Shown here in pieces: positions 954 through 11,491 of a DNA stretch of 12,773 bases. Position 1 is the first letter of the stretch. The number at the start of each line of letters is the position of its first letter. This DNA is from a virus, in UHGV virus genome UHGV-1672225; one strand, written 5' to 3'. The notes under the pieces are model-generated. The model worked only from the letters and a program-made list of their open reading frames with translations. It was not told the origin of the DNA and did no database searches. A program made the position numbers and the translations under genes.

Positions 954-1236
954 GATTAAACCCTAATGCGTCAACTATCCGCGCCAGATTGCCCCTGAAA
1001 TACAGAACAACGATGCAGATAATCAGATTTCCAATAACCACCAGCCAGTGGGATTCTTGATAAAGACCGAACACATAACGGAAGGGAACATTGGCGTATA
1101 CAATGACGTAGATATAAGCCAGAAAGGAAACAAATGGACGATGCCTGGAGTCTTTCCGTCGATAAAGCATCAGCGCCATTACTATTACTGTGCAAAGCAC
1201 CGCATTAATCAGTGCTGACGGGTCACTGCTTACCAT
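940..1236 (-). CDS. Small multi-pass membrane protein in the lysis cassette (holin/antiholin-like partner)
   Basis: ORF track gives 940..1272; I prefer the ATG at 1236, preceded by GGAGGGGG. Three hydrophobic segments; overlaps the holin-like gene end and the endolysin start. Confidence 0.4.
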   Translation of the reverse strand: MVSSDPSALINAVLCTVIVMALMLYRRKDSRHRPFVSFLAYIYVIVYANVPFRYVFGLYQESHWLVVIGNLIICIVVLYFRGNLARIVDALGFNHDQR

Positions 1237-1618
1237 TTGAACCCCCTCCACGTAAGCGGGAAAGCATTCCAAAGATGCTACCGAGATCCTGGCTGTTTAC
1301 GAACGTGAGGATTTTAATGGTCAATGCAGCCACAATAACCGCACCAAGCGCATCCAGAGGACGATCGTTGTAGCTGGTCCATTTGGCAAGAAATGAGCCA
1401 ACTAACGGCGCTCCAATCACTCCAACAATGAACGATGTAAAGAAATAGCCAATCAGCTTGAGACGGCTAATATTCACCGCTGTAGCAACATAGAAAACAG
1501 CGCCAGCAAATGCCCCGAATACAACGCCGTAATCAATACCAGTTGCAATACCAAAAACGCTGGCACCCATCAGGCCACCAGCAGCAACGGCCGTACCGGA
1601 AATTGGTTCTGCTGACAT
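1223..1618 (-). CDS. Holin-like membrane protein
   Basis: ORF track gives 1223..1666; I prefer the internal ATG at 1618 (MSAEPISG...), preceded by GAGGA. Gly/Ala-rich multi-TM protein, first gene after an intrinsic terminator, directly upstream of the endolysin. Confidence 0.5.
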   Translation of the reverse strand: MSAEPISGTAVAAGGLMGASVFGIATGIDYGVVFGAFAGAVFYVATAVNISRLKLIGYFFTSFIVGVIGAPLVGSFLAKWTSYNDRPLDALGAVIVAALTIKILTFVNSQDLGSIFGMLSRLRGGGSNGKQ

Positions 1619-1631
1619 TGAAATCCTCGTT

Positions 1632-1663
1632 AAAAAAAAGCCCCGCCGAAAAAGGCAGGGCTT
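1632..1663 (-). terminator. Intrinsic terminator (tR'-like) immediately upstream of the holin RBS
   Basis: Minus-strand RNA forms a 10-bp GC-rich stem (one G-U) with a 6-nt loop, followed by a run of U (8 A on the plus strand at 1632-1639). Confidence 0.6.
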
Positions 1664-1995
1664 CATAAAGCAACAAATTACGCGGTAATCGCTTAACGCA
1701 GTTTTACTACGTTAAATGAAACACTACACCCAGTTACCACCTAAAACAAGGTTTCCCCATAAAAAAACCTTCATATCGTGGTTAATCGATCAATAAAAAA
1801 GCAACGTTCAACTTTTTACCAACTGAACATCCCGACCAGGACTTCCATAATATTCGCCGATATTCCACTGCTTAAGTTGAGTAATCTTCTCCAACTTAAC
1901 TCCCACAGAATCCAATTTCTGCCATGTTTTCGGTTGTATGTGCCTCATTACCCGCTCTGAATATCTAAATACTGCTCGTAGCCTCGCTAAATTGC

Positions 1996-2703
1996 TCACT
2001 TGTCGCCTCCTTTACGAATCTGTTCCGCCCACTCCTCAAGAGATTTCTCCGCATATTCACCGGACAGGCCATCAATCGGATGCGGTTCATTAGCCAACTC
2101 TTCTTTCGCTGACAAAATCATGCGTGTAACGTCGAAAACTTCACGCAAAGATTTATTGATAAATCCGTGATTGAACGCAGCAGCAAGACGGCTGGCGGTA
2201 TAGTTAATCCCCTCGTTGCGTGCTTCCGCACGAATTTCAGCCAGAAAAGCATCGGTGGCTGAAATATTTCCTGTTGCCTTCATGGCCCCCAAAATAACCA
2301 GAACGCCATCTCGCCCAACCTCCTCAGCGATAACCTCGGTGTTGTCGCCAACAACATCGCAGAATGCCTGAACTGCCTTACGAGCCAGCTCATTCTCCGC
2401 CGCCAGCGCCGCACGACTGGCCTCCAGTTCAGCAATGCGTTTGCTTTGTGCTTCCCGTTCATTCAGCAACGCCTGCACTACTTCTGGGTTGAAAGCTGCG
2501 ATATAACGAGCGTTGTTCTCTGCGTTTTTCTGTCCGTCGAATCCTGGCCAGTCGACAATATCTCCGTGATGATTATCTCCTGGTGTGTGCACAGCGTACG
2601 TGCCGTGTTTGCCCGGCGAAATAAATGCGACCCATTCGCCCTGTGTTGCCTGTTTTGCTATCTCACGTAGCGCCTGATAGTTAATTGCTGTGCTGTTAGT
2701 CAT
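1996..2703 (-). CDS. Ea22-like (ead/Ea22 family) phage protein with coiled-coil middle region
   Basis: Start placed at ATG 2703 (GGAGG 8 nt upstream, 4 nt after the stop of the upstream gene) rather than the ORF-track start at 2748. N-terminal INYQALREIAKQATQGEW resembles the recalled Ea22-like signature; an A/E/L-rich heptad region follows. Confidence 0.45.
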   Translation of the reverse strand: MTNSTAINYQALREIAKQATQGEWVAFISPGKHGTYAVHTPGDNHHGDIVDWPGFDGQKNAENNARYIAAFNPEVVQALLNEREAQSKRIAELEASRAALAAENELARKAVQAFCDVVGDNTEVIAEEVGRDGVLVILGAMKATGNISATDAFLAEIRAEARNEGINYTASRLAAAFNHGFINKSLREVFDVTRMILSAKEELANEPHPIDGLSGEYAEKSLEEWAEQIRKGGDK

Positions 2704-4380: not shown

Positions 4381-5448
4381 TCAGGCTTTCAATAGCGATT
4401 CTTTTAGATATCGGGCATCAGCCAGGGCGTTTGGAGTAATCTTGCGAACCCATGCATTACGGGTTGGACTCCACTTAAAGGCGCGTGATTTAAGCAGCGA
4501 ACGAATGTTTGCCTCTGGTTTGCCAGGGAAATAAAACAGGATGCGGTTATCCTCTGGATCTATCTCCATAGAAAAGCCGTCGTATTCTTCGCGCTGTGCT
4601 CCTGTTACAGACTTGACCGATTCAAGCTCCTTAATACGGCTCTGTAGTCGTTTGATTTCGGCGTTATTGTTGCTCAGTGCGTATGAAGGGAATCCGATGC
4701 GCCCACAGAAATCTCCGGCCAGTAACTCTTTGGCTTCGCTTTCTGTAAACCTGAGATCGATTAATGCAGAAAGCTGCTGTATTTGGTCTTTTTTGTATTT
4801 GCGAATGGCCTTATTTGCGGCCTTCATTTTGACGTGTGACTTCATGCAGCCTTGCAGCTTACGAAGCAACTTAAATAGCGCATCAGGATCATCAGACGAA
4901 ATTCCATTACGACCAACACCTGCGGCTTTGCTCTCGTAGTGTGATGCTTTACTTTCGCATTCAACAAACGCTTTTCTGAATAACGCATCAGCTTTAGACA
5001 AACGGCGGCGATGGCCTTTCGCGCTATAATGGTCAACTAAAATCGGCTGGCCTAACGGGATCACATCCAACAGGTCATGCGCTCGCTTATGCGCTACCGC
5101 ACCTTCTTTTCTGGCTTTTTCTGCACGAGCAATATATCGGGCAAGACGCGCGTTCTGGCGTTCCTGATAGGTGTTTACGTAATCATCTCCGCGCTGCTGC
5201 TGTTCAAGCCATGCTTTGCGCAGATCTTCTGTTACGTCCACCAGCTCCGCAGGGATACAACCAGTTTGGGCTTCATAAGAGTAACCATCCTCATAGATAC
5301 GCCCATCGTCTTCAACAAAGAAAAAGGTTTCGTGCTCATCGCTTTTGACCATACGACCATTAACATGGCGTAATAGGTAGCCAGTATCAGTGCTTAACAG
5401 GCTGTTAGGGTTGTTGATCCAGTCAGAAATAATTACTTGTTTATTCAT
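4381..5448 (-). CDS. DUF3560-like protein (355 aa), function unknown
   Basis: Start at ATG 5448 (GGAGA 7 nt upstream) rather than 5529. Central GQPILVDHYSAKGHRRRL resembles the recalled DUF3560 motif; long K/E-rich helical middle region. Confidence 0.45.
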   Translation of the reverse strand: MNKQVIISDWINNPNSLLSTDTGYLLRHVNGRMVKSDEHETFFFVEDDGRIYEDGYSYEAQTGCIPAELVDVTEDLRKAWLEQQQRGDDYVNTYQERQNARLARYIARAEKARKEGAVAHKRAHDLLDVIPLGQPILVDHYSAKGHRRRLSKADALFRKAFVECESKASHYESKAAGVGRNGISSDDPDALFKLLRKLQGCMKSHVKMKAANKAIRKYKKDQIQQLSALIDLRFTESEAKELLAGDFCGRIGFPSYALSNNNAEIKRLQSRIKELESVKSVTGAQREEYDGFSMEIDPEDNRILFYFPGKPEANIRSLLKSRAFKWSPTRNAWVRKITPNALADARYLKESLLKA

Positions 5449-5616
5449 CAGATTTCTCCGGTTTAACCAGGGCGGGTATCGCTCGGTTTCGGGTATAACA
5501 TAGGAAATTTTTTCCCACCTGTAAAGCACTTTTTATATAAATCTATAATTATATATTTATAGATTTTCGATGTTCCCGATGTCTACACACCATCAAAACA
5601 GCTCAAAATGACACTT

Positions 5617-5994
5617 TTACTCTCTTCGCTTTTTCAAATAGTCGACAACATACGCCCTGGCTTTTGCCAGCTTCCGGCGATACTGTCTGAGGCTAAGAGA
5701 AAGGGCGTGGGCTTTATCAATATGCGGTGCATTTATGTCGAGGCCCCGAATCTCCCACGCCCCGTATTCAATTCGGACAACCAGCGCCGCAGTCTCATCA
5801 ACTACCGTGAGGGCCGTCACCGCTCCCTCTATACTGGTTTCCAGTGAGTCATTTGGTGCGCCGCCCCCTCCGGTAAACTGGCAGCGCGTAACCATCATCA
5901 TTTCTAACATCGACGCGAAACCGCTACGGGCGTTGCAGCCATTGCGCACCCACAGCGCCCATAGCTCAAACAAGCTATCCAGATCGCGTCTCAC
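5617..5994 (-). CDS. Candidate Q-like antiterminator (Phage_antitermQ-type), GTG start
   Basis: 125 aa; N-terminal LFELWALW and C-terminal basic helix loosely resemble the small Q-like antiterminator family; sits at the end of the nin-like block. Weak call. Confidence 0.35.
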   Translation of the reverse strand: MRRDLDSLFELWALWVRNGCNARSGFASMLEMMMVTRCQFTGGGGAPNDSLETSIEGAVTALTVVDETAALVVRIEYGAWEIRGLDINAPHIDKAHALSLSLRQYRRKLAKARAYVVDYLKKRRE

Positions 5995-7967: not shown

Positions 7968-7986
7968 TTAACGAACTCCAGTTAAA

Positions 7987-8022
7987 ACCACGATACGTGG
8001 TATTAAAACCACATATCGTGAG
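7987..8022. promoter_or_regulatory. Two adjacent operator-like palindromes (ACCAC-N5-GTGGT type)
   Basis: ACCACGATACGTGGT at 7987-8001 is a perfect inverted repeat; ACCACATATCGTGAG at 8008-8022 is imperfect. Both are preceded by AAA. Confidence 0.55.
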
Positions 8023-8030: not shown

Positions 8031-8089
8031 TGGGCGAAACAAAAAATAACCTTCTATTTGTGGTCCACCTCTCGTCTTACCATGTGAAA

Positions 8090-8104
8090 ACCACTAAATG
8101 TGGT
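8090..8104. promoter_or_regulatory. Operator-like palindrome on the repressor-proximal side
   Basis: ACCACTAAATGTGGT, a perfect 5-bp half-site inverted repeat about 40 bp upstream of the CI-like start. Confidence 0.5.
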
Positions 8105-8141
8105 AATGTATAAATAACCCACCATTCACGATTGATGAGAC

Positions 8142-8798
8142 ATGAAAAGCAACGACGAGAACATCAAGAAAGAAATAGGTCTGCGCATTCAGACTCTACG
8201 GAAACAATCCGGCATGACTGCCGGAGATCTCCAGCAAGTCACTGGAATAGGCTTAAGCACCTTGCAGAACTATGAGGCCGGATTAAGACAACCATCTATA
8301 CCTGCCATCAAGAAAATCGCGCACGCCCTGAAAGCATCAGCGCCTTATATCGCGTGCTTAACAGATAACCCGTTCCCACCCCAGAATACTAACGCTCCTG
8401 TTATTCCTGGGCTTGTAGCTATAAAAAATGACATAGCATCGCACGCCGGAGAAAAGCCAGTGCTGGCGATAGAACAGGAGATTCTACGAAGCAAGAACAT
8501 CAACCCATCGTCTCTGTCAGTTCTCCAGAGCAACGATGAGTTAATGTCACCAACAATATCCCCAGGCTCCCAAGTCCTGATTAATACAGACGATACAGAG
8601 ATTCATGAGGGGATCTATGCCCTTGAAGACAGAAATGGCCTGGTTGTTTTGAGGCACTGTAGAGTCATACCGGGTGACAATGCTGTTATGCTGTCAACCG
8701 AAAGGGATGCTGAAATGAACACTAAGCATCTGAATAACGAGGAATTTAAGCGTTATAAAGTTCTTGGCCGCGTAGTTAGTGTTGTCAACTGGTTATGA
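8142..8798 (+). CDS. CI-like phage repressor (XRE-type HTH plus S24 LexA-like peptidase domain)
   Basis: N-terminal LRIQTLRKQSGMTAGDLQQVTGIGLSTLQNYEAG is HTH-like; the C-terminal 100 aa has an S24-like fold pattern; divergent from the Cro-like gene. Confidence 0.7.
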   Translation: MKSNDENIKKEIGLRIQTLRKQSGMTAGDLQQVTGIGLSTLQNYEAGLRQPSIPAIKKIAHALKASAPYIACLTDNPFPPQNTNAPVIPGLVAIKNDIASHAGEKPVLAIEQEILRSKNINPSSLSVLQSNDELMSPTISPGSQVLINTDDTEIHEGIYALEDRNGLVVLRHCRVIPGDNAVMLSTERDAEMNTKHLNNEEFKRYKVLGRVVSVVNWL

Positions 8799-8822: not shown

Positions 8823-8840
8823 ATTTCTACGCTCAAAAAA

Positions 8841-8855
8841 ACCACATTTTGTGGT
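8841..8855. promoter_or_regulatory. Fourth operator-like palindrome, downstream of the CI-like gene
   Basis: ACCACATTTTGTGGT, same half-sites as the switch-region sites; a TTGACA lies 2 bp downstream at 8857-8862. Confidence 0.5.
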
Positions 8856-8890
8856 TTTGACAACATGTAAAAGTATAAAAGAGGCTACGC

Positions 8891-10573: not shown

Positions 10574-10590
10574 ATTCAGCCATAAAAAAA

Positions 10591-10606
10591 GGCCCCCGAA
10601 GGGGCC
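10591..10606 (-). terminator. Intrinsic terminator hairpin (minus-strand orientation, possibly bidirectional)
   Basis: GGCCCC-cgaa-GGGGCC preceded on the plus strand by 7 A (a U-run on the minus transcript); no T-run on the plus side. Confidence 0.45.
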
Positions 10607-11132
10607 TAATCGCTACTTGCTGCTAATGTTTATCGTCACATTCAGAGCGTTATCAGTAATCTTCCAACCCTCCCCATGTGGCGTAAACAAAGCCCCAGTA
10701 ACAACGATAAAAATACACATACAGTATTTTTTCATTGTATGGCCCTTACAGGCCGTTTCACGGCATCCCCACCGACGAAAACAACGCGAGAGCAAGCACG
10801 GCTGCTTGTGCTTGCATGTACGGCAACGGAGAATCCTCCCCTAAAGTCGGTGCCCGGGTGCGAATCGGCGGGAAGGTCCACAGGTATTTTACGATTATTT
10901 TAAGATTAGTAATAGGAAAGAAATTAAACGAAAAAACTCGTTTATTTTCACAAAATCAGTAACCTACCCACAATCTGTGAGTTTGCAGGCACAACAAGAA
11001 CCACAATTTTTTGAAGCATAATAGTGGACTATTATTACCTTTTGGGTAAAATTAACTTGCTGCTTGTGCTTGCGTGGTTGTTTATACAACAACGTAATGC
11101 TGAAAGGACCGCGAATCCGATCAGCACGAAAG

Positions 11133-11159: not shown

Positions 11160-11305
11160 GTTTCTGCCTACCAATAAACCCACGCTATGTGGTTGTCTCT
11201 GTTAAAATCCTGCCGTATTGACATGAATGCGCCATTGGTGGACACTTTCCGAGCCGTAGCAAAATCTACGGTCGGGATTGGAACCCCGATAATCATCATG
11301 GCGCA

Positions 11306-11326
11306 TACCGCGTTAGCGGTTTTTTT
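11306..11326 (+). terminator. Second intrinsic terminator in the leader (candidate sRNA 3' end)
   Basis: ACCGC-gtta-GCGGT followed by a 6-T run; a perfect -35 TTGACA lies about 90 nt upstream at 11218-11223. Confidence 0.4.
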
Positions 11327-11491
11327 ATGCGTAAAGCACTGCTACACCCAAATTATGGTGGGGCGTGCGGGGGAGTCGTAAGACTCGCCGGATTCCATGG
11401 TGACCGGTAGTTCCAACCCTGTACGTCTCACCACCCAATGATTGGAACCAGACGGTGGTGAGTATCCTTAACCTTTAAGGGAACTATCACC

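Follow-up and report, generated by a model that had tools for sequence, protein, structure and literature searches.

Q is reported to depend on two cis elements: one resembles a -10 hexamer and lies in the initial transcribed region, the other is a binding element located between the -35 and the -10. Q-lambda and Q21-type proteins are described in the same paper as unrelated, both in sequence and in fold (PMC6606751). The fold of Q21 has been published as sigma region 4-like (sigmaR4-like; bioRxiv 10.1101/651190). Besides, pR′-tR′ RNAs can be real small RNAs (sRNAs), as in Stx phages, where the sRNA StxS comes from the terminated pR′ transcript (PMC7547250). Here we analysed the virus genome UHGV-1672225 (12,773 nucleotides; this whole stretch is called the window), which is about 99% identical to NZ_CP064105.1, a circular 47.5-kb E. 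coli plasmid, with regard to the leader that precedes its first holin gene on the minus strand. An earlier note on this DNA had left two choices, a late promoter with its qut site in the leader or read-through from upstream. Comparative evidence favoured a promoter in the leader, at corrected coordinates, and the proposed unit can be set beside two annotated pR′ promoters as follows.

Phage 21 pR′ (OL657228, annotated): -35 TTGACA, 17 bp, -10 AACACT, next 6 nt ATTCGC, sigma-dependent pause element TAAGCT at +2..+7
Phage 21 spacer: Q-binding elements (QBEs) QBEu ATTGAGCA and QBEd AATGAGCA, at spacer positions 3-10 and 11-18
Lambda pR′: -35 TTGACT, 17 bp, -10 TAAATT, next 6 nt TGACTC, pause element AACGAT at +1..+6
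Window unit: TTGTTT, 17 bp, TAGTGT, TTCATT, TAACGT

The TAACGT hexamer of the window has the register of lambda AACGAT and is within 1 nt of that of phage 21 TAAGCT. Because the spacing arithmetic is the same as in the annotated pR′ regions, it falls exactly at the position of a sigma-dependent pause element.

Promoter-like unit, terminator and predicted short RNA

The non-coding leader covers about 189 nt (1807-1619), because a conserved gene for 63 amino acids (aa) fills 1999-1808; the earlier note had counted a leader of about 330 bp at 1619-1995, about half of which is coding. The features of the leader and of the start of the lysis cassette, in the direction of transcription, are listed below.

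1750-1805, minus strand: conserved upstream block, shared by the E. coli, Salmonella and L031 variants despite different genes on either side
1744-1749, minus strand: proposed -35, TTGTTT; TTG invariant in 10/10 variants in anchored alignments
1727-1743, minus strand: 17-bp spacer TAGGTGGTAACTGGGTG, in the position of the QBE in phage 21 pR′
1721-1726, minus strand: proposed -10, TAGTGT; TAnnnT kept in all variants
1720-1715, minus strand: discriminator of 6 nt beginning TT (TTCATT in the window)
1709-1714, minus strand: -10-like hexamer TAACGT, proposed sigma-dependent pause element, 6 nt after the -10
1694-1714, minus strand: 5′ hairpin of the predicted transcript, UAACGUAGU-AAA-ACUGCGUUA, from the fold
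1699-1697, minus strand: invariant GCG at +16..+18, 10/10 variants
1665-1677, minus strand: U-rich stretch TTTGTTGCTTTAT right before the terminator hairpin, with invariant columns in the alignment
1632-1664, minus strand: intrinsic terminator (tR′-like), stem-loop 1664-1637 (11 pairs, 7 of them G-C, 6-nt loop) and T8 at 1639-1632
1616-1628, minus strand: holin Shine-Dalgarno sequence (SD) GAGGA at 1628-1624 and ATG at 1618-1616, from the sequence and the PGAP holin coding sequence
1223-1618, minus strand: first holin gene of the lysis cassette and first late gene 3′ of the terminator, 'phage holin family protein' in the PGAP annotation of NZ_CP064105.1

We found that the arrangement TTG-N20-TAnnnT-N6-TA(A/T)CGT, followed by GCG, kept a fixed spacing in ten variants whose flanks were otherwise unalignable. 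These were the window type, two Salmonella-type variants, one from Pantoea (L021), four enterobacterial viral contigs and two Vibrio phages. The hexamer TAACGT was identical in nine of the ten and read TATCGT in the other, the Vibrio phage L046. The variants came from loci that encode relatives of a 125-aa protein of the window (described in the next section), in which the region downstream of the gene was searched with the anchored motif; in the two Vibrio phages the homolog is only 35-38% identical. This search gave one site per locus, on the same strand as the 125-aa gene, 4-10 kb downstream of it, intergenic and before late genes. The Vibrio sites were taken from a relaxed pattern, again with one match per locus that was intergenic and ahead of late genes. 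A profile search with the whole leader (nhmmer) in the distant relatives returned nothing outside the close family. In the window TTG-N20-TAnnnT-N6-TAACGT occurs once, and none of 200 shuffles contained it. A collection-wide pattern scan found the same contigs again, one of which carries a Q-like protein only 34% identical, and every site-bearing element with enough sequence also encodes a homolog of the 125-aa protein. Pattern matches in L019/L020, L047, L048, L051, L053, L054, L057, L058 and L061 were set aside as chance, with the downstream GG...GCG missing and a coding context.

A scan for the sigma-70 consensus found no match of at least 9/12 on the minus strand of the leader, because each of the two proposed hexamers matches at only 3 of 6 positions; the earlier note had likewise been unable to assign a confident -35/-10 pair. 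By eye only, sites for sigma-54, sigma-E, sigma-28 and Ogr-type activation (TGT-N12-ACA) were also considered and none fitted. A late-promoter motif repeated before other late operons was rejected too: the conserved core occurs once in the 47.5-kb plasmid, which argues against multiple activator-dependent late promoters in the style of P2, Mu or P1.

The relatives are mosaic and share only 1805-1619. For example, Salmonella plasmids have other upstream genes and a different holin/lysozyme cassette; 1805-1695 is nevertheless 85% identical in them, and at an equal distance they have a terminator that differs in sequence. The block at 1805-1750 is kept in the close family. In it are a T-run with ATTGATCGATTAACCAC, which includes the operator-like half-site TAACCAC (1784-1778), and an inverted repeat GAAGGTTT...AAACCTT (1772-1748). 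Spacer positions 5-7 are conserved as TGG (TGA in Pantoea), and the TGG of the window lies inside a second operator-like half-site, GTGGTAA (1740-1734). A direct repeat of TTTGG at 8-bp spacing is present in the QBE register in L034 (TTTGGCCC/TTTGGTAT) and L040 (TTTGGCAC/TTTGGTAT), with 5-6/8 matches, and the Pantoea spacer has TGAGCT, which corresponds to phage 21 TGAGCA.

The terminator, which had been called strong, proved to be the top terminator match of the window, with an 11-bp stem and T8. It does abut the holin ribosome-binding site as had been noted, at a distance smaller than the roughly 10 nt then given: the T-tract ends at 1632, 3 nt before the SD and 13 nt before the ATG. Terminator-like sites as such are frequent in the window (26 versus 12.6 +/- 3.6 in shuffles). 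Across five variants 98% of the stem cells were paired and 4 of the 11 pairs had changed on both sides, and the predicted 86-nt RNA at 1714-1629 folded at -33.4 kcal/mol (z = -4.9). Judged from these figures, the terminator is real and structurally conserved. In most relatives a terminator of different sequence lies at +66 to +95 (+51..+83 in the window). Upstream of it, the 5′ hairpin shows compensatory changes at three pairs in the Pantoea variant, and TTG.T..TT in the U-rich stretch is kept in three otherwise divergent variants; this stretch could be an Hfq-type module of the short RNA.

The 125-aa protein and remote homology to Q21

The gene for the 125-aa protein lies farther up on the same strand.

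5617-5994, minus strand: gene for a Q21-like protein of 125 aa with a fold like that of sigma region 4, a candidate for antitermination at the leader

All records label this protein 'hypothetical'. No match to Pfam PF06530 (Phage_antitermQ) was obtained with the window protein even at E <= 10, and Q21 itself scores 87 bits against that family. The close family is small; an exhaustive profile search collected 130 remote relatives (50% clustering). A profile of 113 relatives matched phage 21 Q chains at E 3.7e-5, hhalign against Q21 gave a probability of 94.7% over Q21 residues 13-89 with the shared LELW.W motif included, and 10 family members matched PF06530. On the strength of these profile, hhalign and PF06530 matches of its family, the 125-aa protein is best read as a remote member of the Q21 lineage. 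This homology is solid for the N-terminal two thirds, and for the C-terminal helix-turn-helix it is at fold level only. The element therewith encodes a Q-family protein, a candidate antiterminator such as belongs to a lambdoid pR′-qut-tR′ cassette. A profile scan of genome contigs with the protein family pointed to a single locus, in Pantoea. The earlier note had placed a Q-like candidate about 3.6 kb from the leader; the likeness to Q stands, as a remote homology to phage 21 Q, and the distance is 3.9 kb.

The gene follows one for a DUF1064/endonuclease-I-like protein. Similarly, in phage 21 a Holliday-junction nuclease gene is located just upstream of Q, so that the synteny of the window is much alike. 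Between the 125-aa gene and the site are a primase-like DUF3560 gene with its own promoter and variable cargo genes. The stretch right behind the Q-like gene (5616-5449) was considered as a pR′-like unit and rejected, as it holds an ordinary DUF3560 promoter, TTTACA-17-TATGTT, and no terminator.

The same area showed a further repeat. An AT-rich element of about 115 bp is present in three copies in the plasmid with 93-95% identity (window 5444-5560; L007 6377-6497 and 38096-38208). Each copy precedes a different gene and holds a palindrome, TCTATAAATATATAATTATAGA, together with the promoter TTTACA-17-TATGTT, which looks like a small regulon with a shared operator.

Proposed switch and rival explanations

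We consider it probable, on the comparative evidence above, that the leader is a Q21-type pR′/pause/tR′ cassette served by the distant and divergent Q21-like protein. Judged from homology and anatomy, a weak sigma-70 promoter, TTGTTT-17-TAGTGT, would start transcription at about 1714/1713, and the first six transcribed bases, TAACGT, would act as a -10-like sigma-dependent pause element. In the plasmid state, with no factor, polymerase would make an RNA of 76-83 nt and stop at the leader terminator. After induction, the early operon would supply the 125-aa protein, which would load onto polymerase at the pause, presumably via a site in the promoter spacer. The loaded polymerase would resist the leader terminator and probably also three further same-strand terminators before the terminase gene, and such read-through would express the lysis genes and probably the structural genes. 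In the near-identical plasmid, the interval from the lysis cassette to the terminase gene does contain three additional strong terminators on the same strand, which fits processive antitermination. The short RNA may also be a small regulatory RNA in the plasmid-prophage state, by analogy with StxS.

Several observations weigh against this reading. The window protein alone has no Pfam or PDB sequence match, the homology to Q21 spans only its N-terminal two thirds, and Foldseek E-values are weak (0.3-0.9). The Q-like gene is not adjacent to the site: from its stop at 5617 to the -35 at 1749 there are 3.9 kb and six or more genes, and the gene-site distance of 4-10 kb in relatives is likewise unlike that of canonical cassettes. 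L036, with a protein 55% identical, has no recognisable site within 10 kb downstream of the gene. With regard to the promoter, both hexamers reach only 3/6 of the consensus, whereas the -35 of lambda and phage 21 pR′ is near consensus, and the QBE-like repeat is weak in the window spacer, with half-sites at 3/8. Alternatively, the conserved GTGGTAA of the spacer may be half of an operator of the ACCAC/GTGGT type seen in the early region. Finally, some downstream genes have promoters of their own, and relatives of the L033 type lack a nearby strong terminator.

In the latter group we also observed that about 1.7 kb of ORF-poor (open reading frame-poor), GC-rich sequence separates the promoter-like site from a strong terminator (L033 14460-16140; also L034, L035 and L040). 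The stretch contains repeated GACAGCCGGAA(A/G)..GACGGC units, and in these four contigs it gave no Rfam or tRNA match.

The same components could be combined in other ways. If the 125-aa sigmaR4-like protein were an activator that binds the spacer/-35 region and promotes initiation, the terminator would insulate the lysis genes from read-through of the early operon. We regard such an activator-dependent late promoter as quite improbable: a promoter located 5′ of a strong terminator cannot express the holin gene unless that terminator is overcome, and a terminator at +66..+95 is conserved in most relatives. In addition, plain activation gives no function to the conserved -10-like hexamer at +1..+6, and the profile homology is specifically to Q21. 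The leader could also be a stand-alone sRNA gene, GcvB-like or otherwise Hfq-dependent, with the terminator before holin by chance and the lysis genes expressed otherwise. In its favour are the 5′ hairpin, the conserved U-rich stretch and the strong terminator of the short RNA, the StxS precedent, and a GcvB (Rfam RF00022) match at 1632-1789 with 34.3 bits (E 1.6e-4 for the window). Over these 158 nt the order of hairpin, G/U-rich stretch, hairpin and terminator is that of GcvB, and the match, full-length and sub-threshold, collapses 48 model positions to 4. However, the score is below the Rfam gathering score of 42, the G/U-rich 'R1' match coincides with the proposed spacer and -10 and precedes the predicted start, and the 3 nt between terminator and holin SD leave no room for another promoter. 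GcvB and other Rfam families were rejected for the leader, the matches being sub-threshold and driven by hairpins and terminator. A role as sRNA is also compatible with the cassette, which predicts such an RNA in the repressed state, and we consider the stand-alone sRNA gene the least probable of the readings.

The remaining alternative is a leader without a promoter, in which the terminator closes the early operon and the conserved block serves as a binding site for the immunity repressor or another regulator, or as a put-like or N-like RNA element on transcripts from the early promoter. The early operon does enter the leader on the same strand. The WWACCAC motif occurs 14 times in the window versus 5.6 expected (0/200 shuffles reach 14), and its half-sites TAACCAC (1784-1778) and GTGGTAA (1740-1734), 37 bp apart, flank the proposed -35. 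The motif also forms ACCAC-N5-GTGGT palindromes, which are found in the gap that separates the repressor gene from the first early gene, behind the repressor gene, and right in front of repA (7985-8003, 8088-8106 and 8839-8857; L007 34482-34496). In distant relatives another palindrome, GTGAC-N2-3-GTCAC, precedes the site by 55-160 bp (by 111-112 bp in four contigs), with one further copy elsewhere on most of those contigs; in the Vibrio phage VPHZ6 the second copy is just upstream of parA. The copies are as follows.

L033 14305-14316, L034 15313-15324, L035 16692-16703, L040 14697-14708: GTGAC..GTCAC palindromes
L039 20181-20215, L045 10853-10864, L046 8856-8867: GTGAC..GTCAC palindromes

These shared palindromes hint at a second control layer by a DNA-binding regulator. 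Still, a leader with no promoter appears very unlikely: the half-sites are not kept in the wider family but the TTG/TAnnnT/TAACGT spacing is, neither an operator nor an RNA element would be expected to show 17-bp spacing and to match two annotated pR′ promoters, and the variants share no put-like hairpin pair upstream of the terminator. A hairpin in the leader of the first early gene (7988-8021, minus strand; 14-bp stem and a short T-run) includes one of the ACCAC/GTGGT palindromes and could be an operator, an attenuator or both.

The Q21-type cassette, if correct, would provide a testable model for how these plasmids keep lysis and virion genes off while replicating, and it would mean that Q and the site where it loads can lie apart, which is relevant when pR′ is sought next to Q. 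No late promoter has so far been annotated in this common ~47-kb phage-plasmid family of E. coli and Salmonella, and late promoters of related elements, Vibrio phages included, can be sought with TTG-N20-TAnnnT-N6-TAACGT as a signature of fixed spacing. A wider and rather unlikely extension is that an unannotated Q21-like clade spans enterobacterial phage-plasmids and Vibrio phages, its gene uncoupled from the site by replication and cargo insertions. In that extension, operator-type sites that recur in other control regions of the same element, namely at the early promoter and repA in the window family, would add a gate on the late promoter and so a second layer to the silencing of lysis, and the ~80-nt RNA would be a plasmid-borne regulatory sRNA in the carrier state.

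Genomic setting and comparison with phage 21 and lambda

The window element is a phage-plasmid, with repA, parA, a toxin-antitoxin pair and an XRE repressor gene on board. A sequence nearly as close as the E. coli plasmid is that of Yersinia phage vB_YpM_41 (identity about 97-98%), whereas vB_YpM_HQ103 is an unrelated 32-kb phage. The leader sequence is present in 70 of 5,426 complete E. coli genomes, ATCC 25922 among them, and the replicons that carry it are nearly always plasmids of ~47-49 kb. A literature search found no paper on this phage-plasmid family or on vB_YpM_39/41/44. All genes relevant here are on the minus strand, and a single long co-directional run starts from the XRE repressor gene with the early operon, followed by the lysis genes and then the late genes, of which those for terminase, head and contractile tail are located past the window end. 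The main features of this setting are the following.

8142-8798, plus strand: XRE repressor gene
7967 to 1808, minus strand: early operon
1996-2748: Ea22-like gene (Pfam Ead_Ea22, E 1.6e-23)
1808-1999, minus strand: conserved 63-aa ORF, last gene before the late control region (phrog_9594, annotation, protein conservation)
From 1618 onward, minus strand: lysis genes

The gene immediately upstream of the leader had been taken for the Ea22-like one; the actual neighbour is the 63-aa ORF, and the Ea22-like gene is farther up. This ORF matches phrog_9594 at E 1e-46 and is annotated in Yersinia phage vB_YpM_41 (OR545054) but unannotated by PGAP. Its protein is kept in Salmonella and in a third variant despite diverged DNA (L004 2801-3001; L031 11249-11443), and the gene is directly upstream of the late control region in three variants that differ in other upstream genes. 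The changes among close variants are too few for a decision by the ratio of nonsynonymous to synonymous substitutions (dN/dS), and coding status was settled by protein conservation in the distant ones.

Matches to other RNAs were seen in the element. After the lysis cassette, just beyond the window, L007 5409-5484 is tRNA-Ile according to PGAP and tRNA-Met with anticodon CAT according to ARAGORN, a disagreement that is the usual CAT-anticodon ambiguity. At 11240-11438 (plus strand) a P1 immI-like RNA set adjoins an ORF6N antirepressor-type gene (C4 antisense RNA 84 bits, isrK 70 bits, c4-a1b1 target 38 bits, the last sub-threshold), which suggests P1-style antisense control of an antirepressor. 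Besides, 10585-10881 (minus strand) is a full-length match to the ryfA RNA family (141.8 bits versus a gathering score of 80).

Among known systems, the phage 21 cassette (Q21, pR′21, tR′21) has the same order as the window: -35, 17-bp spacer, -10, 6 nt, -10-like hexamer, terminator and lysis genes. Phage 21 Q is a remote homolog of the window protein with the same sigmaR4-like fold. The window protein has 125 aa versus 162 aa in Q21, is outside PF06530, and is alignable over the first ~80 residues. The two loci differ in several further respects. Phage 21 Q lies about 10 bp before pR′ (it ends at 1359 and the -35 starts at 1366 in the locus), whereas the window gene is 3.9 kb away. The -35 of the window, TTGTTT, is weak beside the phage 21 TTGACA, and the spacer of the window, unlike that of phage 21, shows no evident QBE. 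The window terminator lies at about +76 and abuts the holin SD, whereas in phage 21 the terminator is at about +40 to +50 and tRNA genes and ~270 nt intervene.

Lambda is like the window in having a promoter, a -10-like pause element in the same register, a short terminated RNA and a co-directional late unit with the holin gene first. However, lambda pR′ is strong and constitutive whereas the promoter hexamers of the window are weak, and the lambda 6S RNA has 194 nt as compared with the 76-83 nt predicted here. The parallel that had been drawn with the position of lambda tR′ is loose, as lambda tR′ is ~400 nt from S (pR′ -35 at 44552 and S at 45186 in lambda coordinates) whereas the window terminator abuts the SD. 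With regard to the RNA, StxS and the predicted window RNA would both be a short by-product of a late promoter terminated just downstream in lysogeny; the latter has a conserved U-rich stretch and a strong terminator, and it is this shape that suggests a regulatory role. The kind of switch is thus a familiar one in an unfamiliar family, which would not surprise a specialist and leaves the mechanism known from these phages unchanged.

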